DNA of 64,000 bases from Psammoneis japonica (lineage: Eukaryota): assembly GCA_008632985.1 (NCBI GenBank), contig QPGO01000243.1, forward strand, positions 1 to 64,000, given 5' to 3'. The notes below the pieces were generated by a model. The model saw only the letters and a list, made by a program, of their open reading frames with translations, was not told the DNA's origin and did not search any database. Position numbers and translations under genes: made by a program. This document shows positions 9,963 through 39,172 of this stretch, piece after piece. Each line of letters opens with the position of its first letter. Positions within the stretch are counted from its first letter, which is position 1.

Positions 9963-10068
9963 GTTGTGTGTCGTCGGTGTTGTTGCCGCAGCATCCGTCT
10001 GTCATGGCTCCAACGGCATGTTTGCCTTTTCTCGTTCCTTGAGTGCAGGTTTTGCATCACGTGGCACC

Positions 10069-12282: not shown

Positions 12283-12318
12283 CAGATGAAGCGTAGATGG
12301 GGCATTTCAAAACTTTGG

Positions 12319-13857: not shown

Positions 13858-13950
13858 GAGACATGGAAAGGTCATGACCACAATCAACACTCGACAAAGC
13901 CTGCACTTCAAGCAACGAGAAAAAGGCAAACATGCCGTTAGATTGGCGAT

Positions 13951-14510
13951 GATTTCACGACGCCGAGATCCCCGTTTTGAAAAATTCAAAGCAACGAATC
14001 TCTTTTAAACACAATAAAGAGACGTTCCGTGCCTTGGATAGCCCGGAGCGGATCCTCTTTGAAGCAACAACAATGAGCTCTAGCAACACAACACACAGCA
14101 GCACCAAAAATGAGCAATAAAACGATTTGTCGTGACGCCGAGACAGACGCATCCCAAGATCCAGCATGTGGGCAAGATGCAATTACAATAAAGCTGCGAT
14201 TCAGCGTTTCTCCGTACAAGGATGACGCTAAATCGAAAAAGCAATCGCGTTCTCGGGAACACCCAACGCGAAATTGCACGCAAAACGACTACGAGATTCA
14301 CTTTTCTCGACGAATTCATTACGGATTTTCACAAACAAAGCAATGCACATGTTCTTACAATGATTGCGGTTCCACCGATGCCTTGTTCGCCGCCGTTTGA
14401 GGCCAAAAGCGTCGTCAATTGCAAAACTCGGGATGTGCGGCTGCGGGAGGAGAGAAAAAAAGTTGTGGTTTTCGCCAACGCGCAATTCTGACGTTTCGCG
14501 CATTCTACAG
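13951..14510 (-). repeat. Right terminal inverted repeat (~560 bp)
   Basis: Reverse complement of 9398-9962. Confidence 0.93.
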
Positions 14511-15269
14511 CACCAAAAGCACAACTTGAGCACGAGCATTCATTTCGCAAGTGCATGAAAGAGCTCGCATCGTACATGCATGAAAAAAAACGTGCCGTCT
14601 GTCATGGTCTGCATCCCGGAAGCATGTGGGATTTGAATTTTGGAACATTGCGATTGTTGTGAGCGATGTCACGAATTTTTTACTTTCCAAAACCTCAAAA
14701 CCACCATGACGACCAAAGAAAGCAGCCATGACAATCTGTGGCTCACCCAGATCAAGCAAGGCATCCACAACAAGGTCGGAAGAGACAGCGTGCGGGGCGA
14801 AGACATCTGGGGGGGAACTTGCAGAGGGAGTGCAGTGCGCACCATTGCGTGGGATGAAATGCTTGTGTTCACAATCACACATTGCTGCATGTGCAAATCA
14901 GGTCACAGTTGTGGATGTGTGCAAAAGGACAGATCAACCAGCACACAGATTTGGTTGGATGTCTCGAAAACTGCAAATGCGATCGACCGACGATGTCGAC
15001 ACATGAGGTGTCAGCGCTGATCACATCCGGACAATCTGCTGTCACAATCAGATGCTCCAAATGACCTTTGGTTTGCAAACATGGTGCAAATGCTTTGGAC
15101 CATTGAGAGCTCCTTCAGAGAAACTCCAAATGGCAGAACAAAGTCCAATCTCGCAATTTTTGTTTTTCGTGAGATTCGCTCTGTTTTGCCTGCACTTGTT
15201 CTTTGAGCACAGTGCATTGTGCACACACACCACAGAAAGCAAAGAGACAAAAGTGAAGCTTTTGTCTCA

Positions 15270-17870
15270 TGCAACCAATGGCAAGTCTTCTGTCAAGCAG
15301 GAGACAATCACACCTGCACCGCTGGAGCCGATCTCCGAGCCAAATGTGCTCAAACCAAGCCAGCAGCACCTCAAGATGGTGCAGTGTTTTCACCCTGGAG
15401 ACAAGAAGAGCCACACCCACACAATCAATGTTGAGCACTGCAACAAGCAGGGAGTTCCCATGTGCATCAAATTCCTCAACAGTCAGACAGAGTGTCCAAC
15501 AGGAGCAGGCTGATGAGTTTCTTGCAGCGTGATGCTTGCGTTGTTGCGTGGAGATGCTCTCCAAGTTTTTGAGAATGAGGTGGCAAATGTTGGCTCCAAA
15601 CAGGACAAAGGAGCCTTCAGAAAATGTGAGCATCACCTCGCCAATCATGCATTCCCAAAGAATGCACTCCAAAATCAGAGGCAGTGTCTGCAACGTGAAG
15701 CCAGACTCTGTGAAGATTCGAGAAATCACTGTGTGGACCCAACAAGTGAACAAAGACTTCAAGTGCCACCCTCTCTTTGAGACAAACCAGAATCTGGATG
15801 ACAATGAGCTCAAAGACATCATTTGCAACCTTGCGCCTTGCTGCCAGCACAGCCAGTCCACTCTTCAAGGTTTCAATGTTCTCAACCACACTTTTGATGA
15901 GTTGGCGGAGCTTTTGGAGCATCTGGAGGTCACAGAGGGCACATTTGACCAGATCCATGTCAAGGGTGACACTGACAAAGCCAACAATTGATGAAGCCAT
16001 TGTAAAAGCACTGTCCATGATTCATCAAAAGACTGGCAAAGGAATGCAGCAAGACTGGCAACATTCAAATGGCGCACAGTTGCACAGGGTCTTGTTGCAA
16101 CACAAACAATGCCTCTAAAAAAGAAGAGTTGAACACCATGGTTGCTCAAGCAACTCACAAAACCCTCAATGCAAGTTCCCTGACAAAAGACAAGAGAAAT
16201 GCAAAGCCAAAGATTCAGGCTCTTGACACCCTCAGTCAGGGCAGAAACTGTCAATTTGAAATGATGACTCACAGTGATTCTGAGGAATGGCTGGCACCCA
16301 TCAAGGAATCATGTGCATCGCTGGCTGGAAAAGGCTGGAGTGATTCATGCTGGTGCAGCAGTCATTGCTCACATGAACACTTCCTTGGGGAAAGAGAAAA
16401 ATGAGCCTCTGCAAGTTGTTCTTTGCAGCGAAACATTGTCAAGCACAATTTTGCACAAATTCACATGGAAATTGAGAACCACAGAGAATGTGCCACCAAA
16501 ACTTATAAAAGCAAGGGAGGGTTTTTTACAATTGACAGCAAATGCAAAATGCAGCTCTCCTTGCCTGAATTTGACAAGCACAAGCTGATCAAGAAAGATG
16601 GCATGCATGGAGAGCACCCCTTCTTTTTCTTGTGGATGAGACATGATCATGGGGCATGACTTCCTGAGCAGTCTTTGAATTGTGCTCAACTTTGCAAATG
16701 AGGAAATTAAATGGGAAGATGCAACCGCACCAACAAAAAATGTTGGTGCATTTTTTGATGCCGAGGTCCTCAGGCTGGCTGACTGCCAATCACATTGAGG
16801 AATCTTGCGCCACAAATGGTCTCAATGACAGGGTCAACAGCATCCTTGATGCTGACTGTCATGCTGCTGAACTGCCTCCTGATGAGATTTGAAAACATTT
16901 TCAATGGCAACCCAGGTGTGTGGACAGCGAAGCCAATCAATCTTGCATTGAAGTTGGGTGCAGTCCTGCACCAGAAACCAGTTCCTGTTCCACAGGCCTT
17001 GAAGGCAACTGCTTGAAAGGAAGCCAGAAGACTCCGCAAGACAGAAGTCTTGAGAAGAACAAATCACTCTGAATGTGCAGCTCCAACCTTTGTCCAAATT
17101 GGAAACTGGCGCATGCTCTGCCCAACATTCAAGACATGCTTCAGAAGCCCAAGGGCTTCATGCATGCAACGTCACTTGATTTGAACATGGGACATTGTTG
17201 CATTGAGTGGACATCATGTGCACATTGTGTGTGTTGCATGACTGTGATGCTGCGGGGCAAGTGTGAGTGCTGCAGACATCCAGTGGGAATCGGCGGAGCT
17301 CCAGATGTTTTCCAAGAGCACACAAGCAAATGCACATTGACAACATGCCATGCCTGACAAAAGGTGACTTCAAAGATCACCTCCATCAGCTCAAAACAGC
17401 ACTCACATGGCTCAAACAAGCCAGTTTAAAGGTCAATGCCAAACAGCCCTTTTTTGCAAAGTCTGAAGTGGGCTCTCTGGGATTCCACATTTTAAAGGTG
17501 CTCAACCAACTCTCAAGAAAGTGGAGGCAATTAAATTGACCACAGCTCCTGGGACTCATGAGGGGAATTGCAGTGTTTCATTGGTGTGGTTGACTGCTGT
17601 CAAGACATGTGGCCTCCATGGTCTCACTTGCTTGCTCCTTTGGCCAAACTTTCCTCATGTGAGGTCAAGTGGCAATGGGTGAGCACAGAACAAAAAGCCT
17701 TCCAAAATGCAAAGCAAGCAATGTTGACAGATGTGTTGTTGTCACACCCAAATTTCAATGAACCCTTTGAGATGTGTGCAGATGCAAGCAGTTCTCAATT
17801 GGGTGTGGTTGTCTCACAGCACAACTGACCTGTTGCCTTCTGCAGAGCCGAGAGCCAAATGAAGCACAGA
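15270..17870 (+). mobile_element. Degenerate Ty3/gypsy LTR retrotransposon (gag, protease, RT, start of RNase H; no integrase seen)
   Basis: Gag-like LLRGDALQVFE and AFPKNALQNQR; RT ALPNIQDMLQK.KGFMHATSLDLNMGHC and HIDN at the YxDD position; RNase H FNEPFEMCADASSSQLGVVVSQ. Frameshifted. LTRs not identified. Confidence 0.85.
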
Positions 17871-18399
17871 TGCCACATGGCAAGCCGTGTGCAGAAACCC
17901 TTGACCACAGGCAGACTCAGCACTTTTAAAAATTGGCTCACTTTTTTGCAGTCTGTGACATTGGCATGACGTGGCAAAACATTCACCACTGCAACAAAAA
18001 AACAGAAGGCATTTGCAGCTTCTGCGATGATGTTCAGAGTCGATTGGAGTGGGTTGGTGTGGTGCTTTTGCTGCTGCCAATGGTTCACAACCATGCTGTC
18101 AGTTGGCAAGTGCAAAACCTTCTTGTTTCACCTTCTTCTCCTCTTTTTTGACACGTGTGTTTTTTTCTGCCTTTTGTGTTTGATCAGTGGGCAAGAATCA
18201 CCAACAGCAAACATGATGACAGTGTGGGAAGTTGACTGTCAATCCACAATGGCATTGTGGCCTTGAGTCTCTCAGTGAGGGTGTGCCAAACATCTTCCAC
18301 CAAAAAGTGGAAACACATGCACATGCAGACAAATGCAAAAAAAAGAACTTCACTGCAACACTCAACACCTCCAAATTAAATTCAATTCAATCTTAAATT

Positions 18400-20780
18400 T
18401 TACACAGCCCTTGCCAACTGCTGCCCATGCTGAGCTTTTGACAATGCCTGACATGCCGTTCAATCCACAACTGTGGACAGGGTCAGAGCGTGTGTGCAAT
18501 GCAAAACAAGTGCAACAATTCTGCATTTGCAGTTGCAGGCGGAAACACTGCACAGCCGACAGTCCCCAAGAATTCTCCATCAGTCTAGCAAACCATCTTG
18601 CTGCATGGTGGTTGGAAGTGGGATGGCTGCAATGTTGCCCGAACTCTTCTTCGATGCAACCATCCAAGATGCCATGAGTTTGCAGTGAGTTCTCCACCAA
18701 ATTGTTGACACACATGCGGTGTCTCCACATGTCCCATGCTGCATTCCACAGCTGGGCTGTCAAGCCGGAGACCCATCGCAGTCCAGTGTTGCGGCAGTCC
18801 AAATGCTTGCAGTGTTGCTCTTGGGCATGCACCCACTCAATCACCAGGATTCCTTGAGCAAATGAACTTTCTCCCACTGTCTGTTGTGCAGTGAAGGCTG
18901 CTGCCATGTGGCTGCATTCTGTCCTGGGTGGCACCTGGGGAGCATTGTCATGCCATGATGTCAACATGCTTGCGATTCCCACTTTTGTGTGAGGATGAGC
19001 AAATTGCTTGGTGAGCCATTCTTTGACACTGTCAAGTTTTTTGGTTTGCAACTCCTGGGCCCCAAAGGATCTGCATCTCAGTGCATGATCTGTGCCCGTC
19101 TCAGGTTCTTGGCATCGTGGACACACCTGGCCCTCAATTTGCCCCAGCAGTGCAGATTTTTTAGATGGAACAAAGCCGGTGGACCACTTGGATTGCCACA
19201 AGCGGCAGAAGGCAGGGCATTGTTGCACGGCATTGCCCAGTGCAGTCCAGTTGATTTCTGCATGTGTGGGCTCAGACCGCAGTTTCTTGGCCCAATGTTT
19301 GGCAGCTGGTGGTCCGCACATGTGGTGAAGTGGTGTTGATTTGTCCCACTGTGTCATGGGCTTGCCTGACAAAGTGATGCACCACATCTCACATGCCACG
19401 TCAAAGTGAGCAAAGGATGGCAAACCAGCTCATGCTTCCCAGTGCACTTTTGCCAGGAGATCCATTTCAACATTAAAAACTTCCAGGTGACTCAGCTGAC
19501 TGAGGTCCACTTTGTGGTCTTGTTGACCCTCTTTGTGCCTGAACGATGACAATTGGAATGTCCTGGATCATCCTTCTGATGGGGTGCATCAGGTCACAAT
19601 TGGTCTGAGTTGGGTTGTTGCAGTTGTTGTAAAAACAGGTGCAAAGCACGAGATCACAATCACACCTGAGAATTGTTTGTCCACAAGTGACACTGTGTTT
19701 CAGGCACAGTTGGGAGAGTTTTCAGAGCATTCTGCACATTCCTTCCAACTCTCCTCTGCAAGCACTCTGATTGCTCTCTCTTCCCCAAGTGTGGCTCACT
19801 CCAGGGCATTGGTGTGAGTCGCCTTCTGATGGCACCAGAGTGTCATTGCTGCTGTTGCAGTTGTTCCTTTGAACGATCCGTTGGTGATGCTCATGGTCGT
19901 TCCTGACAAGATTCCTGTGACCAACAGTGCATCCTCAAGTTGTCATTTGTGTGGCAGGTGGGGCCATTCAGCTGGAGGGTTCCTTGTCTCAATGTCAACT
20001 GGGGCGCATCCTGCGGTGGCAATTTTTGGTCCATGTTGCATCACCTTGGTTGGCATGGAATCTGGGCGACAGTTGCTTTCATGACCATTGAAATGACAGA
20101 GTTGTGAGCAGACCTCTGTCTGCTCTTTTGTCTTCCTGTGGATCCTTTCATCCTCCTTTGAGCAACACCATGGTGATGGTGGGTGCTGCTGCCACACGCC
20201 CAGCTTCCTTCGCAGCAGCAAGTGTTGGTTCCAGCCGGGTGACAGACAGCACATGGTTGGTGCCTCTTGTCAAAGCCTTCAGCATGAGGCAGAGGGGCAC
20301 CCTGCGTCTGGCCACTCAAAGTCCGTGCCGCATGGCTGTTCCCCACTCCAATGTTGTGGCAATGTGCTTGTTCTGTCGCCACTTGAGATGTTGGAGACAA
20401 GTGCTGTGTTGAGCCACATCCTGCACAGATTGATCTTGCGCAATCTTTTGCCTTTGCATCTAAAGTCGACAAACATGTTCATCAAGAAAGTGTCGCTCAT
20501 TCTGTTTTGTTGCGGAGTGAGGTGGGCAATTGCAAATCAACATTGCATCCCCAGCAAAAACTCCACAGGGACTTAATCCATGTTTTTGTCACCAGGATGC
20601 CAAATTTGTTGCAGTCAACCATGAAGAGCTGTTTCTGTGAGCCGGCCTCCAAAGTTGTCATCTCTCAAACAAGAAGCATTTCCTTCTCTGTCATGGAGGC
20701 AGAGTCAATCTGTTGAAGGAAGGTTTCCAATTTCAAGATGCCTTGCAAGACATGTGGCTTGGTGATGCCTGGCAGTGTTC
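18400..20780 (-). mobile_element. Degenerate non-LTR retrotransposon, 3' half (RNase H and CCHC knuckle; resembles diatom Ambal-type LINEs)
   Basis: LRKINLCRMWL, RNase H-like ITNGSFK, CPRCQEPETGTDHALRC, LRWVSGLTAQLWNAAWDMWRHR. Confidence 0.8.
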
Positions 20781-20900
20781 TCCATGAAATTGATGATGCC
20801 TTTGCAACTTTGGAAATTCACTCCTTTTCACACATGAACAAACAAAGACACTCTCAATTCCTCTGCGTTTGACCACATGCAAGGCATTTGTGGTGTGCAG

Positions 20901-21024
20901 CCCCCAGGCATGCAAAAAAAGGAACTGAAAGGGGCTTCAAGAAAGCTCGCCAACTTGCCAGGCCCCCGGGCATGCAAAAAAAGAAACTGAAAGGGGCTTC
21001 AAGAAAGCTTGCCAACTTGCCAGG
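20901..21024. repeat. 62-bp tandem duplication (2 copies)
   Basis: CCCCCAGGCATGCAAAAAAAGGAACTGAAAGGGGCTTCAAGAAAGCTCGCCAACTTGCCAGG repeated with three transitions. Confidence 0.85.
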
Positions 21025-24000
21025 GGCTGAGGCAGCCAACCTGACAGGAGCCTCTGAAAAATTCATTGTTGGCAAGTCTTGTCCTGGCAAAAGGTGGCAC
21101 AGCTGGAAGAGAAGCTGGAAAAGACACAACGATGCCATTCTGGCATGTCTGCTGGTGCTGTGGCACCCAATGTGAAGTCTCTGTTTGGTGCTGCCATCCT
21201 GTCCTTTGTGCGCCAATTGCAGAATCACAAAGATGAATCCAAGAAATGCATTGGGGCAGTGTTGGAGAAACTGCCATCTGCCACAACACCAATTCTCTGG
21301 TGTCTTGCACAAACTGAGTGGTTTTTTGTTGTTGTTTTGTCAACCAGCAAGAGAGCTTGCGCATGTGCTTTGCAAGAAATTGCGCGCAGCAGTGTGGGCA
21401 GTCTTGATGTGCATTTGGGCAGTCTCAAAAGGGGTTTGTGTGATGTTCTGGAAGAGATTGAGAAAATTGCTGGCAGGGGGAGTTTGCACAAAATTCTGGA
21501 ACAGACCAAGAAAATTGCAGGAAAAGAAAGCACAGAAAGTGCGGAGGAGGGGGGCATTGAAGAAGAGCACAAACACCAAGCATGGCAAATGACCCTGCTG
21601 CTGCCTTGGTTGGTTGATCCACAGGCTCAAATTCAAGAAAGGGTCACCTGGGGTTTGATTTGCATCGCACCTTTGTTTGTGCGTGTGTTCACCAGAAGAG
21701 CTGCTGCATGTGGTGATCTTGCACTGTTGCTCTGCATGAAACTCAACAACCATTGGAAGAATGGCTTTGAGAGGTTGACATTTGGTTTGTCATTTTCATG
21801 TGTTGATTTTGTCTGGCTGCACGAATTTTTTGTCTGGACAAACTGGAGCTGTGTTTCGAGATCCAAGTTGACTGGGTCACCATGCCATTCACAGGTTTGT
21901 GCACACAACAACTTCAAGGTTGTAAATCCCTGCCAAAGTGACACCACAGTCATCAAAAGTGCAGCTGCAATGTTGATTCAGTGGCAAGTTTGTGTTCAAA
22001 ATTTTTTTCACAAAAGCTCGCATCGCACCCCCACTTTGTGCATGCGGTGTGGGGCTGGTGAAAATCCCTAGAAAAAAAAAGAGTGTGATTGATGCATGCT
22101 CTGGTGCACACCATGAGACTCCTCACTGCAACCTGCATCTGCTGCAGAGATTAAAAATTGAGGCGTGCAAATGTGGCATTGTCTGCCTTGATCCATCTCC
22201 CAACAATGGACAGATGGGGAGCAAACCTTGTCACGTCATGTTCTGGTGCACCCGACAAAAGAGGGGCTGAAGGCAGATTGGCATTGGCTCCACTTCATTC
22301 TCCCAACCTGACCCTCTTGGGTGACAACCATGACAAATGCACAACAGCAACACAATGAATGACAAAAAATGAGCACAATGAAAAATGTGCACAATTCATT
22401 GGCAAATGAGGCTTTTTTTTTTGTTGCAATCATTGCACACAACCTTTTGTGCATGATCACAAAACTGAGTTCCCAATGATTTGAAAGTTTCACCTTCTTT
22501 GACACCAAGATGTTTGAAAACACACCACCTGTTTTTAAAACAATTTTTGTTTCATGAGCTGGCTGCAAAAGATGGTTGTGTGACATTGACAGTGTTGGGC
22601 TCAATCTTGAGCTCTCCAGCTTGCATTCTGGAGTCTGCCCTTTGGCTTCCTGCACACTCAGATTTGCAAAGTGCTTGCTCCTCAGCACTGCTGTTGCAGG
22701 AGAGGATTTCAGCGGGGGTGCAGAGGGAGCCATTGGCGCGTGCGCAACAGGATGTTGATGGGACAAGGTCACACCATGACATGCCAAGCCAGACAAGGAT
22801 GCTGCACAAAGCCTCAAATGTGGCCATGGTGCACTCTCACAACTGGCTGACAGTCAACTCAATCATTCCTTTTCTTTTGCCAGCAAAGGGGGAAAGAGTG
22901 AGAGCTGGGGAGAGGGCAGTGTGGCTGTTGGCTGTGCACAAAGAGTGCTCTGTGATGAGTGGCACATTTTTTTGCACTTGGAGTGGCTCTTCAATGAGGG
23001 TGGTCTCTGTGAAAAGAGACTGAGTTTTGTTGGTTGGTTTGTGCCAATCTGGGTTTTGCAGATGCATGCCAAAAAAAGCTGGTTGTTGCTCCCTTGAAGT
23101 TGGAGCAGCAAGAGCTGACCTCCAGCTGGGCACAAATGTGTGCAGATGAGGAGAGCTTGGTTTCTGGTGCCACCAGGGCTGACGTTTGTGGCAGATGGGT
23201 CCATGGCAGGCAGACAGATGTCAGTGTCAAGCATGTTGTTGCATGAGTGCAGCTTTGTCAAAGAAGCTGCTGCTGGTGCATCATGCATGTGCCTGCTGCC
23301 ATGCTCCTGGCCAGTGCAGCATTGTTTGTGCCCTTGCTGTTTTGGCCAACATGCACAACAAGAGTGGTGCAATGCTGGGGGCAAGCCAGCAGCAACAAGT
23401 CAAGTGCAGCAATTTCTGAGTTTTGCTTGTGCCATGATGGCTGGTGTGGGTCCATGCATTGGTTGCCAACAAGCTGTGATGCTTGGCTTGCAAGGTGCTT
23501 GTGCTGTCATCATGAGCGGCACAAAATGGGCAGCTCATCAAGGTGCTTTTGACCTTTGGGAGTCTTTTGGTCTGCTGTTGGCATTGGAGGCAATGTGGCA
23601 AGCCTTCCAGCTGCCCCCTGTTTCTTGTTGCAGGGTTGTTGAAGCTGGGGCATGCGTTGACCACACTGGCCTTTGCTTGTCTTTTTGTGTGTGCTCTCAG
23701 GCTGGCCAACATGTGGCGAGTGGTGCCCTCTCTGTCCATGACAACCAAGTTGAGTGGGAGGGCTCCACTTTGAGTGAAACAGAGAGAGCAAGCAGTGTCA
23801 GCTGTCATCACAAGAGAGGCCATGGAGAGCTTTGATCTCAGCAAGATGTGCCTTGGGCACATGCTGAGAAATGAGAGCAGGTGTTGTCCAGGCAGTGTGG
23901 GCAGCAGACAAGACCCAAGCTGTTGAGAACACAGCCTGCACACACCATTGGCTCATGTGTGCAGCCAGCATTTGCAGCACCAATGGGCACCGTCTTGTTG

Positions 24001-24139
24001 CAGCAAGCTCTCTTCCTCAGCACAAACAAAAACATGCAAGTGCATCTCTTTGTGGCACACAGGTGCACAGAAACAACAACAACAACACCAACATCAGCAC
24101 ATTGGCAAGAAATCACAAAAAAGATGTGCTCTCTCTGTG

Positions 24140-25380
24140 TGTGGTGGCAGCTGCTGCATGCCTTGCCAAGAGCCCTGCATGGTTGGCCTGCTTCCTCTGT
24201 GTGTGAAGACAGAGTGGCAAAATGTGCTCTTGGGTCCTCTTGGAAAAGCCTCAATTGAGGGGGGTCATTTGCTGCTTTTTCAGCTCAAATTTGACCAAAC
24301 AGCTTGTGACTTGCATGACTTTTCCTGAGTTTCACTGCGCTTTGCTGTGGTGCAAAACATCAAGCCACATTCTGTGTTGGAGGTGGCTGTTCACCAACTC
24401 TCCATTGCTTTGTGCTTGTTCTTGTGCATGTCAAAGGTTAAAAAACACCAAATGTCTGTGGCGCCATGGGCCACCACTGCATTGATGATTGCTGTCATTT
24501 TGTCGTGCTTCAATCATGGTGCATGATGCCCTCATTTTAGTGCATGGCCTAAAATTCCTTCCAAGATGATGATGTTGTGAGCTTGAGCTGATGAAACCCC
24601 CTTCCCTTTGATGCACCCCTCCTCAGTTTGCACCTGATGTTTCCCTTTTTGTGCTTGTAACTTGTGACGAACACTGTTGGCTTTAAAAGAGAGTGACAAA
24701 ACTTTGGAGTCTTTGAATTTTGTTGAACATTCAGGGATGTTTGAGACAAAGATCCAGGCATCACGTTGCATTGTTGTTCTTTGCTGGCTTGCACTGAAAT
24801 GCCCAGACATCCACACAATCTGGCAAGGGTCATGCTTCCCATCTTCAACTTGCACTTTTGACTCTTTTTTGATCAAAAATCAACACAAAAAACCAAAACA
24901 ATTCATCACTGGCATGAGACAATGAAGTTTTGCAAGAACCTCCAGCGGGTGGTTGATGCATCAGATCCAGAATGGGTGCTGCATTGGACCAACTGCAAGA
25001 TGCTCAAGGCGAGTGGATTGATTGTTAAATCAACATGAAACAACGATGCTTTCAACTTGGCTGCAACTTCACATCATTCTCTTCATCCGCGCTCCCACGC
25101 CAAGACTTGTTTTGATTTTCACTCCAGAGTTTTCTGGATTCCCTTTCATTGTTTAAAGTTGTGATGCATTTGTTTCCATTGACATTGAGTGATGTCATTG
25201 TCCTGTTCAAGATCTTGATTTTGATTGGCTCAAAGATGTTTTTGAATGAAACGATGTGTGAATCTTGCGTCATTGTGTCATCAAATGAGCTGGAATTCAG
25301 AATCTTTGTTTTTGTCAATTTGTTTTGCTTCCCCAAAAAATGACGTGTGCGCATCTTGAACTTGCTCAATGACACCCTCT
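24140..25380 (+). pseudogene. Mutated duplicate of the SPX 5' region (upstream, exon 1 at 24922-25008, most of intron 1)
   Basis: Colinear with ~38425-39790. Exon reads MKFCKNLQRVVDASDPEWVLHWTNCKMLK; donor GTAAGT changed to GCGAGT; copy ends before exon 2. Confidence 0.92.
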
Positions 25381-26478
25381 GGTGCCTTCAGATTTGTGAC
25401 AAACAATGCCGACTTTGTTGAGTGGAGAGTCAAAAAGCCCAATGAGCAAGCAAAGGAGAGGCAGCGGGAGGAGGCACAGAAAGAGCTGCAGGGGTGGGAG
25501 CAAAGAAAGGGCGCGCATGCAAGAAAGTGCACAGGGCATTTTAGAGAAGGGACAGGAGATGCATCAGTGCAAAGTTTGGAAAGAAAGTGGAGAGCATGGG
25601 CAGAAAGATGATGAACAACATTGCAGCCGAGAGCTTGGGTGGCCCATTGAGAAGGAGCAGACTGGCACAAGAGGAGCAAGAATGGTCAGCACTGATTTGA
25701 TGCCAGCCAGAAGTGAGCAGAGGATGAGAGCATGGATGGCAAAGTGAGAGTGCAAGAGAAGGCAATGCAAAAAGGATCAGAGCCTTGGAAAGCACAGGAG
25801 TTGGAGCAACCAGGGGGGAGACAGAAGGGCAGACAGAGCAGTTCGCACATCTGAAGGAGCACCAGCAAGAGTGGGGTCAATCACGATGCGCTGCTGACAC
25901 AAGCATGACAGAGCCGATGTGCCAACCCAGGGAGCACGGTGGACTTGACAAGAGCAGGCAAAGAAAGCACAGCAGAGTCAGAGAAAGCCAGAGAGTCAGA
26001 GATGAGGACAGAAGCATGGCAGCAGGATGCAACAAATGAAGCAGTGCGCGCACCAGTTGAAAGTGGGGAACAATGACCTGTGATTCACGCAGCTTTTTCG
26101 CCTCTCTGGTGCTCCTTGAGCCATTGAATGGCCTCAAATGCTCTCACCCAAGAATGCCGGATGATCACAAAGCAAGTCAATTGAAGTGGGAAAGCATCCT
26201 TTTCCCCTTTGCATGGTTGGCTGCAGCTTGAAAAAATGCAACATCGCTGTCGTCGACCCAACAATCACGACCCCGGGGTGAAAGCAACAAAAGTCATAAT
26301 AACATGCTGTGAATTGCCGGCACTGCAGCACCGGGCAAGCTTTTTTCACACTCTATTACAGCACACCAAGAGCACCGGTGTACATTCATTTAAAAAAAAA
26401 ATTCCATGAAAGAAGACCGTTAGTTAGACTAGTCTGATGAGTCGTCTTCGTCCGACGATTCTTCACACCGGTACCTTG

Positions 26479-29400
26479 TCATGGCTGCTGCGCGCGCTGA
26501 AAACTAATGAAAACGTTGTTCTGTTTGCCTCTGCCTCCTCTTCTTTTAATTTGGATCGCATCCTCGCCGACGACCGGATCGCCATTCCGCAAATAGGCTC
26601 GGACAATCATCTTGAAAACACTTTTGTGTTCTACCTCGCTCAAAATTGTCATCACATCTTCCATACGAAGCTTGAAAGTGAGATCATCTATCCCATCACG
26701 ACCGAGCTGGTTGCGTGCAAAGGTAGCCACCAAGGGGTTGCCGGATCGAGGATCGGATGGAGCTCCAACATCTCGGATTCTAAATCGTCGGGGAATAATG
26801 CATGTCTCGTCTTGCCCATCTTTGCATACCCGAATGGTACTCGTGTCAATGTCAGAGACGTCAAGATCACTGCTTCCGAGGATCACTGCTAGTAAACAAC
26901 CACGTGCCTTCAGAATCACTTTGTTGCAGCGCCAGCGGCGCCGATTGCGCCAACAAGTGAACGCACGGCAGGATTTGATGTCAAAGGCAACGACACGTGG
27001 CTGCAGTGGTGCGCTGCTCGGTGAAGCACTCGGTTGGCTGCTCGCGCTTGGTGCAATGCTCGGCGGAGCACTCGGTTGGCTGCTAACAGAGGGGGTGTTA
27101 CTGGACTGTTCTGATGGTTCAGATGAAAGGGAAGTCATTAGACTAGGACCTATGGACGGTTTGGAGCTCATGCTTGGCTCAGTAGACGGAGCAGACGAGG
27201 GCTGGAAGCTGATACTCGGTGAGATCGAAGGAGAAGATGAAGGTTTGGAGCTCACGCTTGGTTCCTCCGATGGTACCAACGACGGCTCCCAGCTCATACT
27301 TGGCAATGAGCTCGGACTGGTGGATGGCCACTTGGTAGAAGCCACCGTTGGTCCTGACGGTTCAATACAGACGTTTCGACTATCACTCGGACATGGATCA
27401 AAATCCTCGGCTTTCATTAGACCAGTCTCGAAAGCGCTCCCAGGGATAACAACTGAATAGAAACCACCGCCGTCAAGGATGAGCTCCGCCACAGAAAAAG
27501 GTCCGTCAAGTCCATTTTCTGCAATCAGAGTCCCATTGAATTCGAACGTTATTGGATTAGTGCCGCTCTTGAGGCTAGTAAGGTCAGAAATATAGTTGTC
27601 GATTTCTGTTCCATTGGTGTCCTGCAGCGTCGCAGACCAATGATACTCGCCCTCTTGTTCGATATAAATACTCATCTCCACGCGGAGATCGTTGTACAAA
27701 TCATCATCATCGGTATCGATGCCATACGTTTCTACCATGGACGTCCAAAGATGAATAGGTTTGTGCTGGAAGTCACGAAAAGAATACGCGGCCGTCTTAT
27801 AGGTCTCGCTCATTTCTGCGAGTATAGCAATGGAAAGGTCGCGCTCTTCAGCAAGGCGAAGAGCGGTAAGTAGTATGGCCCGTCTACTTGGTTCTGGAAG
27901 ATGGATCTTCCGTCAAAGGCGACGTCCACGCTGTTGATACCGCTCTGTAGTTCGGCATCAAACCCGGTAGTTTGCTTGTTTGCCGCGGAATCCGTCAACT
28001 CACCGAAGATTCGGTGAACGCCGGCAGCGGTTGCATCTACGCTCACCTTGACTACCAGTCGATCGTAATAACCATCTGAGTTATCATCGGCTCCCTCATC
28101 AGAGAAGTTGTCGTCGAGGATCAAACTGCCTGCGGTGACGATGCCAAGGACGTACTTGCTACGAGAAAATGATACTGGAACTTCGCCGTCTGCTCTAATA
28201 CTTGTACGGTAGTTTCCTGGCACGTTGGTGTCGAAGAATTGGCCGGTGTAAATGCCGTCATCCGCAACTTCATCTGGGGAAACTCCATCATCTCGCAAGG
28301 AGATTACTTCCAGTTCTTCTTCAGGTGTCGCTACAACAGCAGAAACATTTGCACCTGTAAGTGGCGTCTCGCCATCTTGAGTCAAAGTCCCAAAGTATGT
28401 CAAGGGAGTGCCGACTGCAACAGAAGCTTTGTCCAAAGACACTTCAAGGGTGATAGAGGAGCCACTCAAGAGCACCATAACAACATATTCTACACTGGCC
28501 TGATCAACGACATCGCCACTGACCGAAGCAACCAAGCTCTCATTTTTGACATCAAAAAGCCTGTAGATTACCGTTTTGTTCCCTTCATACTTAAATTGTT
28601 CAAAGGCTATGTTGGGCACCTGAGAATGTGTAAGGTTGAAGCTAATCTGGCCTGATGTGTAGGTGAACAGTACATGCGCGTCAGACGCTGTATCCAATGT
28701 GAGGGGAAATTTGAAGACTTCGCCCTGTGCAACTACACCTGCAACGGTGAAGCACTCAACATTGTTAGACGCTGCTATCAGCTGACGGTTTGGAGGGTCT
28801 GCTCTGAGCAAACGACGAGACAGAGGCTTGTGCTCATATCTGGTATCTTCTATATACCCGATAAGCTTGTTCAAGACATATCCTGATTGAGCAGTCCATC
28901 TGGTCCTCCATGCGCTGCATCAGCGGTCGCCCGGAGTAGAGAATTTCATCGCTGGTATAATCCAATGCAAAGGCAGACGTGACAGGAACAACTCCGTCAC
29001 CAGCACCAATCAATAGGTTCAAAATGAAGTTCAATGGGAATTCGAAAAAATCAGCGATGACACTGCCAGCGAGGACAGTGTACCTACGCCAGGAATCAAA
29101 AGTGAGGAGAGAACGCCATGAGAGCTGGCTTTTATTCCGCCGAAGGTCAAAGATACTGGCCGCACAAACAGACAATTTATGTCCTTACCTGACGTTTGGA
29201 TTGTATCCATGCAGTAGATTGTACACTTTCATGTGCGTCGTGGATAGCTGATAAAATGCTGGTCCCGTACCCCCCAACACTAATTCTTGAAAAAATCCCA
29301 AAATTAAAACAGTAGCGAGTGCTACGTCAAAAAGATTTACATCTTCTTCTGGTTTTAGCACTTTTTCCAAATGAGTCCCAATTCCAGAGATGATCCAATG

Positions 29401-31086
29401 GCCAACTCAACAAGGGTAGTTCCTTCGTTGGGTGTGGCAATCTGAATCAGCTGAGCTATATCATCATGATTCTCAACGTAGTGCCGGGAATCAAGACCCC
29501 CTTTGCTGTGTGCAACAATGTTGAGTTTGTCCACACCCCAGCGTCTCTTTGCGTCAGCGATTGCTAATTTAAGGTCATGAGCATTGTTTGCAATAGAATC
29601 ATAACCTCCCAGGGAGATATGTCCGTCAAAGGGAATGCCGAGACTGGTCAAATGATTCGCCCATGTGCGCCCGATCCACATACTTGCACCTGCTCTATAT
29701 CCGTGAACCAGCAGGACGGGACGAGGTGCCTCATCAATTGTTAGTTCAACCTTGTCTACTTGGATGCACTGGACCAGCCCAGCACCGGTGACTTCGATAC
29801 GAACTCTGTTCATTTCTGGCTCCAGGGTTCCATCTTTTCCTGGGTCATCTGGAAAGTTGACTACCTCGAGTGGAATACTGAATCTGTTCATTTTCCATTT
29901 CCCAGGGTCGCCGGTGAGAACGCCAACTTCATCATCATTGAAGTAGACATGAAAGCGCATTCCATTTGATGGATATGGCCTGGTCGGATTGTACTCGATG
30001 TCGTAGGCCGCGATACGTAGGACTGCCACCTCAGGAATGAGACCATTTTCCAACAGTTTTGTAATATCTCCATAGTAAGGGACTACTGAGTCAATTTCCA
30101 ATGGGATGTTTGGACCATATGCACAGTTGTCCTCGAGCCTGGCTCCTGAGTACTGATCAAAGGCCAGCGCATCGATTCTAGGAATTCTGGTACTAATGAA
30201 CCAAGGAAGAACGGTCTTTCCATATCCACAATCTGAATCATGTTCTGGAATCCGCCGTATCCCCCTGGGGCATACATTAGCTGACTACGAGGCCGAAGGT
30301 CACCACTCCCTGTTAAGAAATGTGGAGGCCTATACTCGTTTCCTTGAGACTGCTGCGGAATGAGAACACCGTTGACCGTGTCGACTATATGGTGGTCAAA
30401 AAATGAATATGAAACACCCTTTAAGCTGTATTGATGCAACACATCATTTCATCAAAGCCGAGGCTAAGGCCAGCCCAGACACGTGGACAGCAAATTGGAG
30501 GTCGGTAACGATCTCCAATTATCGAGGTCACTCCGTTTGTGGTATCAACATTTAAGATATACCACACCCCTCCTATGTCGGTCTTCACAATGTAGATTCT
30601 ACCGGACTTATCGATTGCCAGTGTTCCGCTGTAGTCTGATGATCTCTGGTACGTCTTGAAGACTCGACCGGTTCTGTCATCAATGAAGACCAATTCCGAA
30701 ATACCAAAAGAACAAGAAATTCTGCCACAGTATGGATGGCTGACCAGTCCAACTAAATGGCCACGGTAGCTGTCGTAGGCTAGGGAATGGAAACGCCTGC
30801 GACCACTGTAATATGTGGTCCCATCGTTGGTAATCTCGTGGATGTAGCTCACAATATTGCTTTCTCCGGTTACCTCATCCACCTTGTAGAGTGTGGCTCG
30901 GGACGTGTCGTCTGTTCCCACAACGTACAGAGTACTGGCCGCTTCGCCGACCAACAGAGCCAACAGAGCGAGGACCTTTCCAATTGCTGATCAGACAAGA
31001 AGCAAGAAAGCGGTGAGCAGGATGGGAGGGGTTAAAAGAAACAAGTTTGCTCTCTGTGGTTCACCCTTACCTCCAGAAAACTTCAT
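26479..31086 (-). CDS. Large secreted multidomain protein: propeller-like N-terminus, alpha/beta-hydrolase (lipase-like), choice-of-anchor-X-like Ig domains, Pro/Ser stalk, C-terminal domain
   Basis: ATG 31086 plus a short intron gives MKFSGAIGKVLALLALLVGEAAS; PVLLVHG and NIVAHSKGGLDSR; LRDDGVSPDEVADDGIYTGQF; two DxDxDxxY repeats; PSxxPS repeats. One more intron near 29085-29190; about five other breaks look like frameshifts. Confidence 0.75.
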
Positions 31087-31352
31087 CTTCTATCCGATAA
31101 AGATGGCAGGTATGATAATGTAACGATGATGTATTGAAAAAGGTATCATTGCTTGAATTGTGGGATGAGTTCGCATCAAAGATACGAGTTCGCATTGAGA
31201 CAACGAACTGTGGCTACAGTACAGTAGGGCCCTACCGGTACGTACCGCATTGCCGAGTTAGGATCCACGAGATAGAGTGGATGGGTGCGCCCGCCCTCCG
31301 AAGCTAAGAGTGGGGTGCGCCATCCAAGGCTGTCCAAGGTGCGAGCAAATCG

Positions 31353-34300
31353 TGGCATGTGTCCGGTCACGTAGGTAGCTCCGAGTTTATGAAAAAAGAA
31401 GGGGCAAAGGAGGAGGAGGAGGAGGAGCGAGAGAGGGAGAGATGCATTCACAGTGTTCAGTGTGTGCAATGCGTTCAACGTGCGTGCACGACGCACAGAC
31501 GACCAGCGCTTCCGACACAGTCGCAGCTCCCCACTTTAGAGAGCAAACACTCTAAAGAACAGCAACGTGCCATGATCTGTCTGAGTCATTGCTCACGGAA
31601 AATTTGCACGCCCACTGATGATGCCACCGTTGAGATGCAACCGCACACCAAGCCAAAACTCCATCACTTTTTGCAGCCGGCTCCACCTCATTTTGTCCAT
31701 TTCCTCTCCAGACCCGACTGCATGCGGAAAGTTCCAGTGTCCAATTTCCCACATCAACAAAGAACATCAAAAGACTCAAGTCATTGAGAGCATTGGCATG
31801 GAAAGGCAGCTGCAAGCCCTTGCAGTCAAAAACATCTGTGCTGAAAAATGGCGGGCAAAATGAAAATGTGAGTGGAACCACGCACACAACAACAACCCAC
31901 TGAGGCCACATGTCACAGCGCACTCACTGTGTCAGCTTCCAGAGGTGGCACTGAGATGCCCCACCCAGTTTTAAGGCCCCAAGTGCTGCCAGTGGTTCGT
32001 GGCATCCGAGCATCCAAGAGGAGGTGAGGAGGCCGTCTGGGCAAGCCTTCGCCTCTCCATTTTGTCCGGCACAAAGCCTGGACTCGTTGGCACACTGCCA
32101 AGATCTCCCTGCATGATGTGGACAAAATTGTGTCTTGGACAATGAAGATTTGATTGCAGAGCCAGAAGAAAGGCTCGTCACAGACCAGACACCTGCACAC
32201 ATGAACGAGACACACAAAAAAGGCTCGTGAGGTGCGCGGCTTTCGTCAAAACGACTCTAAAACTCAATCAATCACAACGCACTCACAGGATTGTCTTTTT
32301 TGGAGCATGTGAAATCTGTCTTACAAACGTCATTGTTGCAAGTGTCTCCAAGGCTCCATCATGTTGTTTTGTTTCCACGGCATGCATTTTTGAGAAGTTG
32401 ACATTCTAAAAAATGACGTGCCATTGTTGTGCACTGACCAAGCCCCCAAGAAGGACATCAAGCAAGTCACAAATCCACCCCAATGTAAATGACAGGTGCG
32501 CCAAAGGATGCAGAGTGGGGTGCAGCACAAGGCTTCCAAATGGATGCACTGTGGTGGTGCAAATGCCGTGAAAAAGTTGCCAACTTTGCCAGAGCTTCAG
32601 TCAACCACGCGAGACAATCAATCGACCTTGCAAGCTGTGACAAAATGCAAAACAACAATCTTCAGCAAGCATTCAAATGGCATAAAATGAGAAAACATGG
32701 AAAGACCTCATCTCGGCAATGTTGTCGACCACTCAGATGTTGCCCGCACCGTGCCTCATTTGAGTTGCGAGTCAAGGCACGCAACCGTTTGCAGCATGTG
32801 CAGCAACCAAAGCACCCCAGGAGACCAAACCAATGCATCAACCTCTTTGTGACAATGACAGAAAGAGATCACCCATGAAAAATGCTTCTGCCCCACGATG
32901 TTTGCCATGCTGAGATGCATCAAAGTGCAGTGTGCATGGCCATTTCTTGTGGCGCGGCATGCCAAATCGGGAGCATTTGAGTGGAATGAAGAAAATGAAG
33001 AGGATTCCCTCTTTTGTGTCATTGCACAACTTGTGCCAGATTGGACTGTTCATTTCTGCTTGTCATCACAGAAATGGAATTTTGTCATTGTGGGATTCTG
33101 CACAAGTTCCAGCACATTTCCCACACAGTTTGTGAAGAGCCACACCTGCACAGCTGGATGATTGCCTGTTCTGGCACATGTCTGGTCATGCAGGTGGCTC
33201 CAAGTTTGTGGAAAAAAAGAAGAGGCAAATGAGGAGGAGGAGCCAGAGAGGGAGAGACGCATTTGCAGTGTTCAGTGTGTGCGCAATGCGTTCAATGTGC
33301 AATGTGCATGCACGATGCACAGACGGCCAGGGCTTCTGATGCAGTCGCAGCTCTCTGCTCTAGAGAGCAAACACTCCAAAGAACAGCAACATGCCATGAT
33401 CCATCCAAATGCATTGTCTGCTGCTTCATTGCTCACGAAAAATTTACATGCCCACTGATGACACCACCGCTGAGATGCAACCACACGTCAAGCCAAAACT
33501 CCATCACTTTTTGCAGAGCCGGCTCTACCTCATTTCATCCATTTTGTCTCTAGACCCAACTGGATGCAGAAAGTTCCAGCATCTAATTTCCCACATCAAC
33601 AAAGAACATCAAAAGACTCAAGTCATGGAGAGCATTGGTGTGGAAAGGCAACTGTGAGCCCTTGCAGTCAAAAACATCCATGCTGAAAAATGACAGGCAA
33701 AATGAAAATGTGAGTGGAACCACACACACACAACAACCATCCACTGAGGCCATGTGTCACAGTGTGCTTCCTGCGACAGCTTCCAGAGGCAGCTCTGAGA
33801 CGCCCCACCCAGTTTTAAGGCCCCAAGTGCCGCCAGCAGTTTGTGGCATCAGAGCATCCAAGAGGAGGCAAGGAGGCTGTCAGGGCAAGCCTCCACCTCT
33901 CCATTTTATCCGGTGCAAAGCCTGGACTTGTGGGCACACTGCCAAGATCTCCCCATGTAACGTGGATAAAATTCTGTCTCAGACAATGAAGCAAATCGAT
34001 TGCAGAGCCAGAAGAAAGGCTTGTCACAGACCAGACACCTGCATGCATGAACGAGACACACAAAAAATGGCTTGTGAGGCACACGACTTTCGTCAAAACG
34101 ACTCTAAAACTCAGTCAATCACAGTGCACTCAAAAGATTGTCTTCTTTGGAGCATGTGAAGTCTGTCTGACAAATGCCACTGTTGCAAGCATCTCCAAGG
34201 CTCCATCACATCATTTTGTTTCCATGGCGTGCACTTTTGAGAAATTGACATTCCAAAAAATGACATGCCATCGTTGTGCGCTGACCAAGCCCCCAAGAAG

Positions 34301-34987
34301 GACATCAAGCAAGTCACAAATCCACAATGTAGATGACAGGTGCACCAAGGGATGCAGAGTGGGGTGAAGCACAAGGCTTCCAAATGGATGCACTGTGGTG
34401 GTGCAAATGCCGTGACAAAGTTGCCAATGTTGCTGAAGCTGCAATCGACCGTACAAGATGATCAATCAACCTTGCAAGCTGTGACAAAATGCAACAACAA
34501 TCTTTGGCAATTGTTCAAATGGCACAAAACAAGAAAATGTAGAAAGAACTTGCCACGGCAATGTTGTCAACCATTCAGATGTCACCCGCATGGCCCCACA
34601 TTTGAGTTGTGAGTCAAGGCACGCAACCGTTTGCAGCATGTGCAGCAACCAAAGCACCCCAGGAGACCAAACCCATGCATCAACCTCTTTGTGACAATGA
34701 CAGAAAGAGATCACCCATGAAAAATGCACCTGCCCCACGATGTTTGCCATGCCCAGATGCATCAAAGTGCAATGTGCATGGCCGTTTCTCATGGCGCAGC
34801 ATGCCAAATCGGGAGCATTTGAGTGGAATGAAGGAAATGAAGAGGATTCCCACTTGTGCCAGATTGGACAGCTCATTTCTGCTTGTCATTGCAGAAATGG
34901 AATTGTGCTGTCACAGGATTCTACACAAGTTCCAGTGCATTTGCTGCGCAGTTTGTGAAAAGCCACCTGTGCAGCTGGACGATTGCC
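31353..34987. repeat. Direct tandem duplication, unit ~1.82 kb (31353-33166 and 33172-34987)
   Basis: Colinear landmarks offset by ~1.8 kb, e.g. AAAGAACATCAAAAGACTCAAGTCAT, CCCCAAGAAGGACATCAAGCAAGTCACAAATCCAC, CAGCTGGAYGATTGCC. Confidence 0.9.
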
Positions 34988-35167
34988 CAAATTGTTGTGG
35001 ACAAAGTTCTGTGGGCCGCACGTTGCATTGCAGTCACCGATGACCAGAGACTGCACAAATTGAATGATGGAAATGTCCAGCAATGTTGGCGTGACCAGAG
35101 GGTTGATCATTGTTGACAAATCATTTGCTTGCGCACACTCAGAGGCACAGTTTGACAACAAAGTTTG

Positions 35168-35206
35168 NNNNNNNNNNNNNNNNNNNNNNNNNNNNNNNNN
35201 NNNNNN
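35168..35206. other. Assembly gap (39 N)
   Basis: Run of N. Confidence 1.
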
Positions 35207-36099
35207 GGTTGTGGGTGAGTCAACCACAACAGTTGCATCATTGTTTGTGTCTTTGCTCTAAGTTTTTTGCCATGAGCAGTGTGAAGAGGTCCAGCTGAAA
35301 CTGGTGAGCAGCTGACAAAAAGTTGACAACCACAGTTGCTGGTGCAGCAGTGCCTCCTTGCAAAACGCAGTGCCGGAGCAGGATGTCGTCAGATTTCAGC
35401 ACCTTTTTGCAACATGGAGTGGGGGTTTTTCCCTGTGTGTTGCAACCTCAAGTGCTGGTTGACTTCTTGGTGGCAGGTTTGGCCACGCTGTTGCTGACAA
35501 GAGCACTGCATCTCAGCTGCCACCTGTTGTCATGCTGCACTGTGCTTCTGTGCATGCTCCAATTTTTGCAGCTGGTGTGGGTGCCAGATCTGCTGTCAGT
35601 TTCCACTCAAACATTGAAAAGCTGTGAAACCAGAAACAGCACAAAGAGAAGCTGCAAAAGGGGGGGGTGGCAGCACAAAGCTGTTTTCAAGGAGAGCAGG
35701 AAGCAGAGTAAATCAAAGAAACTGAAGCCAGCAAAAATGGAGAGGTCAAGAGCATTGGCTCAGATTTGAAGGCTTGAAAAGTCACTGGGTTCTACAATGA
35801 GTCTGTCTGTTGAAGTCTTTCTTGGTTGAGAGCTGTTTTTGGTCTCAGAGGTCATGAGAAAATGACTGCAACTGCACTGTGCTCCATTTCTGACAGATGC
35901 ACATGATGTTTCAGATTTCATTCAACAGGTCATCTGAGGTGAACAAGCATGCATTGCAGACACATGTGCCAGTGGAGAGACTGGTGTGATCTTAAAGTGA
36001 CTCTTCTTTGCAAAGGGAGCAAGCACCACAACATTCCCTCAATTTTGTGGTGGTGGAATTGGAGGGAGGCAAAGGAGTCATCTTGGGTGAGAACAGCAA

Positions 36100-38380: not shown

Positions 38381-39107
38381 GTTGCATTGGCGAGAAGGAA
38401 CGAAATTGATGTGCTTTGTGTGTGAGTGGTGGCTGCTGTGTGCCTTGCCAAGAGCCCTGCATGGTTGACCTGCTTCCTCCATGTGAGTGCAGAGTGGCAA
38501 AATGTGCTCTTGGGTCTTCTGGGAAAAGCCTCAGCTGGGGGGTCATTTGCTGCTTTTTCAGCTTGAATTTGGCCAAACAGCTTGTGACTTGCACAATTTT
38601 TCCACTTCTCCATGGTGAAAGGCATCAGGCCACAGTCTGTGTTGGAGGTGGCCTGTCCACCCACTGTCCTTTGTTTTGTGCTCGTTCTTGTTGTGTGCGT
38701 CAAGCCCAAATGTCACACACGCACAAACACACACACACATGCCACCAAATGTTTGTGTGGACCATGGGCACTCCTGCTGCATTTTAGAGAAACATTTGTG
38801 ATTGCCAGCATTGTCATGGTGCCTCGGTCATGGCATCATCAGGCCCAGGTGTGAGCATTTTTTGCACTAAAAAACAAACACCACAGACAACCTCGTTAGG
38901 GTGCAGAGGCGCAGCTCCAGGACAAGCTCGGACTCGGGGTCCCCAGAAAAAAAAATCATTCCAAGATGATGATGTTGTGAGTTTGAGCTGATGGAACCAT
39001 TCCCTTTGATGCCGTTCCTCCTCAGTTTGTGCCGAAAATGTTTCACTTCTCGCGCTTGTGACTTGTGACAAACTACGGTGCACAACATGATGGGTCGACT
39101 TTGAAAG

Positions 39108-39172
39108 AGAATCATGAATCTTTGGAATCTTTGAATTTTATCGAATATTCAGGAATATTCGACAAAGATTCA
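39108..39172. promoter_or_regulatory. Cluster of candidate phosphate-starvation TF sites upstream of SPX
   Basis: GAATATTC twice (39143-39150, 39153-39160; fits GNATATNC) and TGAATCTT on both strands (39115-39122; 39165-39172 reverse). Confidence 0.6.

Follow-up and report, generated by a model that had tools for sequence, protein, structure and literature searches.

How did a copied exon come to differ from its source by transitions alone, nearly all of them at one class of dinucleotide? The question is raised by a 64-kb window of the genome of the diatom Psammoneis japonica (contig QPGO01000243.1, assembly GCA_008632985.1, positions 1 to 64,000), the single stretch of DNA that defines the scope of our analysis, in which the 5' segment of a gene for an SPX-domain protein occurs once at the native gene and once as a dead copy. 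We found that TpA in two sharply bounded domains of this window has been turned into TpG or CpA at the DNA level, by transitions only, on both strands and with a clear polarity. CpG decays in the same domains as well, but far more slowly than TA is converted.

The SPX segment and its copy

The copied exon 1 with its splice donor (24922-25014) aligns without gaps to its native counterpart (39338-39430), with 13 mismatches over 93 positions. Each mismatch is a transition and 12 fall in a native pyrimidine-purine (YpR) step, the exception being C39346 in CT; with 45 of the 93 native sites inside a YpR step, the probability of at least 12 of 13 differences landing there is 0.0012. The five native TA of this stretch have all disappeared from the copy. 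Two of the three native CG are lost as well, one new CG has been made from the TA of the splice donor (GTAAG to GCGAG), and two native CA read TG. A first-pass annotation of the window had reported these same counts, both the 13 transitions with 12 in YpR steps and the fates of TA, CG and CA, and our alignment reproduces them. The dead exon (24922-25008, plus strand) carries I13A, A19V, P20L, Y21H and Y25C relative to the 29 codons of native exon 1 (39338-39424, plus strand), and its GT donor has become GC. The native gene continues on the plus strand through intron 1 (39425-39823, GTAAGT...ACAG) into exon 2 (from 39824), with a Pfam SPX match on 39785-40540 (E = 6.8e-18).

Judging by orthologue sequences, the native state of the exon is ancestral and the copy derived, since at each of the five altered codons the diatom SPX orthologues side with the native gene. 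A homologue search with SPX exon 2 gave 38 longer homologues, 23 of which have a readable MKF[CG] N-terminus; all homologues with an organism name came from diatoms (Trieres, Ditylum, Nitzschia, Cyclotella, Seminavis and Thalassiosira). The native residue is present in 21 of the 23 at position 13 (native I, copy A), 21 at position 19 (A, V), 22 at position 20 (P, L), 20 at position 21 (Y, H; the remaining three have F) and 22 at position 25 (Y, C). Two orthologues are identical to the native sequence across the whole of exon 1. This outgroup check, with 20-22 of 23 orthologues per codon on the native side, agrees with the polarity that the first-pass annotation had assumed. A PDB search with the 29-aa exon aligned SPX structure 5ijj_A with both Tyr conserved, as a weak match (E = 1).

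The exon is part of a longer duplication, in which 24100-25380 aligns to 38385-39793, both on the plus strand; past either end there is no alignment. The copy comprises ~950 bp of upstream DNA, exon 1 and intron 1 minus its final 30 bp, and because promoter and intron are present it arose as DNA, not via spliced RNA. It lies within tract 1, the first of the two TA-free tracts described below, and its source straddles the edge of tract 2: 38385-39073 is inside that tract and TA-free already, 39074-39793 is unmutated. A direct before-and-after readout, as originally proposed, is thus available for 39074-39793 and not for 38385-39073.

The clean half of the source (39061-39792) shares 703 aligned columns with the copy, of which 124 are mismatches (81 transitions and 43 transversions). 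Transitions are found at 67 of 319 YpR sites (21%) versus 14 of 382 sites elsewhere (3.7%; Fisher p = 5.6e-13), so that the YpR enrichment claimed for the exon extends over the whole of this clean half. Transversions are alike in the two classes (22/319 and 21/382, p = 0.53). Only one of the 27 native TA is kept; 12 have become CA, 10 TG, 1 CG and 3 something else. The copy keeps 3 of the 31 native CG and shows CA at 8, TG at 11 and other dinucleotides at 9. No native CA became TA (0/44), and 79 of the 100 native CA and TG steps are unchanged. Non-YpR sites of the clean half have diverged by ~9%, and onto this background a YpR-specific transition process, saturated for TA, has been added. The exon changes, offered in the first-pass annotation as a readout of the mutation spectrum, do not sample the general spectrum of the genome; the spectrum is that of two sharply bounded tracts.

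Outcomes in the polarised half are balanced between TG and CA (21 versus 20), and no strand clustering of the two was seen along it (29 runs versus 21.5 ± 3.2 expected, that is, more alternation). Nothing here suggests processive action along a single strand. APOBEC-type hypermutation, which would leave strand-coordinated C to T changes in TC or CC, was rejected on the same run count and on the CG context of the C changes. The TG/CA skew supports no claim of strand domains specific to the tracts, because over-dispersion occurs both in tract 1b (p = 0.0025) and in the clean DNA at 39-64 kb (p = 7e-6).

Two TA-free tracts and a transposon

Tract 1 (7035-26296) has an observed/expected ratio (o/e) for TA of 0.00-0.23 and for TG/CA of ~1.5-2.3 in 1-kb windows, with CG at 0.07-0.39 outside the transposon that it contains. 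Tract 2 (31389-39073), built for the most part from tandem duplications, has the same composition; 265 bp separate its end from the SPX start codon, which lies downstream. TG and CA stand near 1.8 times expectation in the tracts; elsewhere in the window TA o/e is 0.38-0.80 and CG ~0.6-1.45. Lists of TA positions place sharp edges at 7034/7035, 26296/26297, 31388/31389 and 39073/39074, with the edges of CG depletion ~50-350 bp away. We also applied the cluster criterion of a preprint on the alga Bigelowiella natans, discussed below (at least 3 consecutive 1-kb windows with Rho(TpA) of at most 0.43 together with Rho(CpA+TpG) of at least 1.52; 10.64898/2026.01.13.699255): 21 of 64 windows qualify, including runs of 11 (15001-25001) and 7 (32001-38001).

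The tracts occupy the space between flanking genes. They hold 127 open reading frames (ORFs) of at least 90 aa in ~27 kb, the longest of 784 aa, because DNA free of TA has no TAA or TAG stop codons. No Pfam domain was found in any of the 116 that were scanned, the 11 located in 12322-14601 (transposase and right terminal inverted repeat) having been excluded. Apart from the one transposon, the tracts contain nothing recognisable.

Repeats inside tract 2 record the same process. The 1.8-kb tandem duplication at 31353-34987 (plus strand; copies 31353-33166 and 33172-34987, 84.7% identity) differs mainly by YpR transitions and adjacent CA/TG swaps: transitions make up 178 of 213 mismatches and occur at 145 of 915 YpR sites versus 33 of 863 elsewhere, and the copies disagree at 38 adjacent CA/TG sites. 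Tandem repeats with a period of ~690 bp (36611-38386, plus strand) end exactly at the start of the SPX-segment duplication and show transitions at 52 of 477 YpR sites versus 12 of 444 elsewhere. Adjacent CA/TG disagreements between copies are the outcome to be expected if an ancestral TA or CG was resolved independently in each.

Surviving sites point to a dependence on flanking bases. Outside the transposon (7000-9250, 14750-26250 and 31500-39050), 73 TA survive, 21 of them in TTAA. Relative to clean DNA, and with the strands symmetrised, survival is 62% in TTAA (21 sites), 30% in CTAA/TTAG, 14% in GTAA/TTAC, 10% in CTAG, 5% in ATAA/TTAT and in CTAC/GTAG, 3% in GTAC and 0% in ATAT, ATAC/GTAT and ATAG/CTAT (100, 207 and 147 baseline sites). 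CG survives best in GCGC, at 86% of baseline. These contexts may give a first estimate of the flank preferences of the TA process and the CG process, and some survivors may be newly made.

Two observations concern the tract sequences themselves. An assembly gap of 39 N lies inside tract 2 (35168-35206). In contigs of a public sequencing run, X1, the summed depth over 14600-18500 is 190-1630 versus ~60 elsewhere, and skipping joints are numerous; repeat families that are multi-copy in the genome appear to make up this part of tract 1.

The transposon (9398-14510) is a DDE_3 (Tc1/IS630-type) element with 565-bp terminal inverted repeats at 9398-9962 and 13951-14510 (95.6% identity). Its transposase frame (12319-14004, minus strand; P0001) matches Pfam DDE_3 with E = 2.3e-15 and has had its Tyr codons turned into His and Cys codons. 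Eight homologues aligned to this protein define 15 Tyr-consensus columns, at which the window transposase shows one Y, four H, nine C and one R. Its other consensus columns are largely retained, 6 of 6 for Trp, 14 of 14 for Gly and 11 of 14 for Phe. The window protein is 0.4% Tyr, the homologues 3.9-5.3%. This is the exchange that TA loss produces, because both Tyr codons contain TA: TAY becomes CAY (His) or TGY (Cys). The family is not natively TA-poor, since 25 of 25 related metagenomic loci have a normal TA o/e of 0.59-0.91.

The element also separates the two losses. It has 271 CG, or 53 per kb versus a clean baseline of 55.6 (~95%), and 49 TA, or 9.6 per kb versus 38.6; because CG is at baseline and little TA is left, TA loss runs far ahead of CG loss. 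The inverted repeats differ from each other at 20 sites, 19 of them transitions and 16 of these in YpR steps. At six sites TA in one arm faces CA or TG in the other, and therefore the process continued in place.

Further observations bear on the element and its relatives. Tc1/IS630-type elements duplicate a TA target site. Here CA stands on both flanks (9396-9397 and 14511-14512), reading tgt[ca]CTGTAGAG... on the left and ...CTCTACAG[ca]cca on the right, and this pair may derive from duplication of a TA target that hypermutation then altered. A second long frame (9928-12282, plus strand; 784 aa) has a serine- and lysine-rich start and no Pfam match; it may be a second gene of the element or a mere artefact of stop-codon loss. 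Among 149 transposase-related representatives from a profile search the median Tyr content is 4.0%. Two distant ones, P0240 and P0256 (38% and 41% identity to the window transposase), have 0-0.8% Tyr, with H or C at 7 of 8 and 4 of 5 aligned Tyr-consensus columns, respectively. A search of viral contigs with P0240 gave no match.

Probable position-dependent hypermutation and its alternatives

We consider it probable that two things acted here, a TpA hypermutation restricted to domains and ordinary CpG decay, with CA/TG flips as a by-product and not as turns of a single YpR cycle. In the two repeat-filled intergenic domains, TpA would be converted on either strand to TpG or CpA until nearly none is left. 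CpG in the same domains would decay to TpG or CpA as well, at a slower pace and most likely because 5-methylcytosine is deaminated in silenced DNA. The 1.4 kb copied into tract 1 would have spanned the tract-2 edge and the SPX promoter; in its new place the clean half would have been rewritten, while its native counterpart outside the domain stayed as it was. Whenever ordinary mutation made a new TA or CG in a tract, this would soon be resolved, in 50% of cases to the opposite dinucleotide, and would so produce apparent CA/TG "double hits". We infer that the domains are silenced chromatin, that the CpG loss is methylation-driven deamination of 5-methylcytosine and that an enzyme carries out the TA step, the foremost candidate being deamination of adenine at TpA by analogy with the B. 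natans work. Attack on thymine and attack on adenine are indistinguishable by sequence alone, because TpA is its own complement.

Targeting follows position, not homology, because the homologous native half (39074-39793) keeps normal TA while its copy is saturated. This half has 27 TA in ~730 bp, a density as in clean DNA (38.6 per kb), and its paralogue has lost 96% of them. Selection could shield the 87 bp of exon, yet it would not protect the 5' region or the intron around it; the native half was therefore not targeted. The tract-2 half was mutated before copying: its two copies disagree between CA and TG at only 7 sites, agreeing at 28 CA and 63 TG, and by our own arithmetic ~50 former TA or CG sites resolved independently after copying would give ~25 disagreements.

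These observations bear directly on a homology-triggered process that would strike duplicated DNA wherever it is located, in the manner of repeat-induced point mutation (RIP), known from Neurospora and other Ascomycota. The likeness is real: RIP too is a transition-only, dinucleotide-specific degradation of repeats and transposons on both strands with a strong dinucleotide signature, the tracts do contain duplications, and diatoms encode DNMT4 enzymes related to the fungal RID enzyme, according to the part of the literature consulted (PMC9998398). The direction is opposite, however, since RIP makes TpA from CpA, as described in PMC2621366, and so raises TA, whereas in the window TA is erased, with o/e falling to 0.00-0.1 and 0 of 44 native CA turned into TA. 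RIP also hits both copies of a pair, and here one copy only is mutated, the native half being untouched beside its saturated paralogue. Most of 18.5-24 kb has single-copy depth in X1 and yet is TA-free. We regard a RIP-like origin as very improbable.

An origin in selection or biased gene conversion, for example through structural avoidance of TA, is slightly less credible still. TA to CA or TG is a weak-to-strong change, in the direction that GC-biased gene conversion favours, but CG to TG or CA runs the opposite way and the changes are strictly context-bound. They also wreck a reading frame, a splice donor and a transposase. None of the 116 tract ORFs scanned has a Pfam domain.

The sequence itself was compared with the public runs X1 and X2; a third run, X3, yielded no contigs placed on it. 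Contigs of X1 span 14600-31300, at a single-copy depth of ~60 across most of it, and match the tract at >99%; one contig of 4694 bases, for example, differs at 15 letters. At least 37 differences between window and runs are listed for 11.65 kb of tract versus 3 for 5 kb of clean DNA. The 37 listed comprise four adjacent CA-to-TG doubles (8 rows), 10 CG/CA or CG/TG differences, 12 transitions outside YpR and 7 rows of transversions or complex changes. The doubles at 17335/6 and 21735/6 occur in both forms within X1, as expected for alleles, and the tract process is apparently still active. X1 possibly comes from the assembly's own sample, which makes it a check of the sequence with independent chemistry at best and not an independent strain.

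Sequencing or base-calling error at modified bases is the least credible source of the pattern. Six single-base insertions in X1 relative to clean coding DNA of the window do suggest an error-prone long-read assembly. Against this, the tract itself is matched by X1 at the identity just given, none of the 37 listed substitutions restores a TA, and the Tyr to His/Cys pattern and the polarised changes form a coherent set of substitutions.

A more serious competitor, though still unlikely, is a single dual-specificity deaminase acting on all YpR steps (CpR through C to U, YpA through A to I), under which TA, CG and CA on the strand acted upon flow to TG, with CA and TG flipping endlessly; it corresponds to the YpR cycle of the first-pass annotation. 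Its case includes the shared edges of TA and CG depletion (within ~50-350 bp), four doubles among the 37 allele-level differences listed and, in the polarised half, nine adjacent CA-to-TG doubles where the two-step route (TA or CG arises by a background transition and is then soon resolved, 50% to the other side) predicts 3.7; the B. natans preprint, in the part consulted, moreover cites editing of both A and C in DNA by ADAT2 (10.64898/2026.01.13.699255). Yet the transposon has lost most of its TA with CG at baseline density, in the B. natans lines 230 of 231 hypermutations were at TpA with none reported at CpG in the text consulted, and with 79 of 100 native CA and TG steps unchanged CA would be at best a very poor substrate.

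By our own arithmetic on the polarised half, CpG decays there at ~13-25 times background per base, which is the usual range for methylated CpG. The YpR cycle with TG/CA as sink, as first proposed, survives in part. TG and CA are the end state; a single cycle, or an enzyme acting on CA, is unneeded, and the TA and CG clocks differ, the transposon having ~95% of baseline CG but only 1 of 15 Tyr codons. The CA-to-TG changes described as double hits are present too: 9 of the 100 native CA and TG steps are the opposite dinucleotide. Independent double transitions would yield 0.14 of these, and two-step resolution 3.7. For X1 against the window, our own arithmetic for the two-step route gives ~2.6 flips where 4 are seen; TA intermediates are expected to be too short-lived to catch, and none was seen.

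Several points weigh against TpA hypermutation with separate CpG decay. The flips in the polarised half are somewhat more frequent than the two-step route predicts (p = 0.014 for at least 9), and all four flips between window and X1 run one way, from CA in the window to TG in X1. The data from the transposon and the SPX copy agree equally well with a single process whose rate at TA exceeds that at CG ~30-50-fold, and the shared depletion edges (within ~50-350 bp) also fit one common cause. As to breadth, none of the 25 metagenomic relatives of the transposon shows the TA-depletion signature.

Neighbouring genes gave further observations. Downstream of SPX (39338-40540), an ORF at 41641-42546 matches Pfam CorA (E = 5.7e-31); it is probably a separate gene and not a fusion with SPX, because diatom SPX orthologues are 420-480 aa long with SPX as their sole recorded Pfam domain. 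The six X1 insertions lie at 27869, 28890, 28929, 29368, 30216 and 30446, in apparently coding DNA, and the first four are also in X2. They probably mark indel errors of the assembly, which may have split one gene into the minus-strand ORFs 26479-27912, 27810-28919 and 29355-30284. An 845-aa ORF without a Pfam domain (3625-6162) contains internal tandem repeats of ~180 bp (70-78% identity) at 5193-5708. The zeaxanthin epoxidase of the window has its closest named relatives in Amphora (69%), Thalassiosira exigua (67%) and Seminavis (63%), with Nannochloropsis at 41%. Most of its named relatives, and all of the closest, are diatoms; on this and on the diatom names of the SPX homologues, B. natans itself was rejected as the source of the window. 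Two proteins of the window had no exact match in the collection searched.

TpA hypermutation in a chlorarachniophyte and its probable counterpart in Psammoneis

The closest known system is the TpA hypermutation described by Mettrop et al. in mutation-accumulation lines of the chlorarachniophyte B. natans (bioRxiv 10.64898/2026.01.13.699255). According to the parts of that preprint consulted, two integrated viral regions mutated at ~1000 times background, and 230 of their 231 mutations were A to G or T to C changes, every one at TpA; the hypermutated integrated DNA is silent, TpA-poor genes are enriched in DDE endonucleases and reverse transcriptases, and an ADAT2-like deaminase is proposed as the enzyme. 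The shared features are a conversion that turns TpA, whichever strand is hit, into TpG or CpA, clusters of 1-kb windows at the Rho thresholds, DDE transposases among the victims and the targetability of a single-copy region. Here the conversion accounts for 22 of 27 polarised TA (12 CA, 10 TG) and for His or Cys at 13 of 15 Tyr codons.

The differences are equally clear. The B. natans host is a rhizarian and Psammoneis a stramenopile. The window tracts are near saturation, with TA o/e of 0.00-0.1 versus 0.45 for the B. natans virus region, and they are also CpG-depleted, whereas the main text of the preprint contains no occurrence of "CpG", "flank", "context" or "diatom". In the window, unlike in B. 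natans, a fragment of a host gene is among the victims, and dependence on flanking bases and sharp edges beside genes are visible. By type, the transposon is foreign DNA and the SPX fragment host DNA; the remaining tract ORFs are the 116 without a Pfam domain. The B. natans rate was measured experimentally, whereas the window is known from its letters; hints of rate are indirect, namely saturation of TA at ~9% background divergence and the 37 listed tract differences versus 3 in clean DNA.

Other known processes cover parts of the pattern. Decay of CpG by deamination of 5-methylcytosine also turns CG into TG or CA in repeat DNA, as at 19 of 31 native CG here, but covers only the CG half, and CG sites make up 10 of the 37 listed tract differences. 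Diatom transposons are CG-methylated via DNMT5a, and many diatoms have the RID-related DNMT4 enzymes, whose function is described as not known in the part of the source consulted (PMC9998398). Deamination of the ADAR/ADAT type, with its 5' U/T preference, resembles the window in changing A to G after a 5' T, as far as the preprint's account of it goes (10.64898/2026.01.13.699255). The known enzymes of this type act on RNA and rarely on DNA in vitro according to the same account, whereas here a promoter, an intron and a DNA transposon were among the substrates, which makes it unlikely that RNA was an intermediate. We found no report of a TA to TG/CA signature in diatoms in the full-text literature, subscription journals not being covered.

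TpA-specific hypermutation was previously represented by one 2026 preprint on one rhizarian alga. To the measured rate, the Psammoneis locus adds a polarised before-and-after pair, evidence that position and not homology or foreign origin decides the target, and a flanking-base preference that any candidate enzyme must reproduce. It also carries a practical warning, since gene callers will report the false long ORFs of such tracts as proteins, for example as Tyr-less "transposases". As a tentative extension, to which we give somewhat less than even chances, TpA-erasing hypermutation could be a chromatin-domain-directed genome defence shared by diatoms and chlorarachniophytes and either old in or spread within the SAR group (stramenopiles, alveolates and Rhizaria). 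Such a defence would hit any DNA that came to lie in the domain, host genes included, would be independent of cytosine methylation and would depend on flanking bases, with complete erasure of ATAT, ATAC and ATAG but not of TTAA, which would largely escape. Diatoms are ecologically dominant, and among them are model species open to genetic work. That a diatom shows this signature at saturation suggests that TpA hypermutation may be a genome defence widespread among eukaryotes and not a curiosity of a single species.

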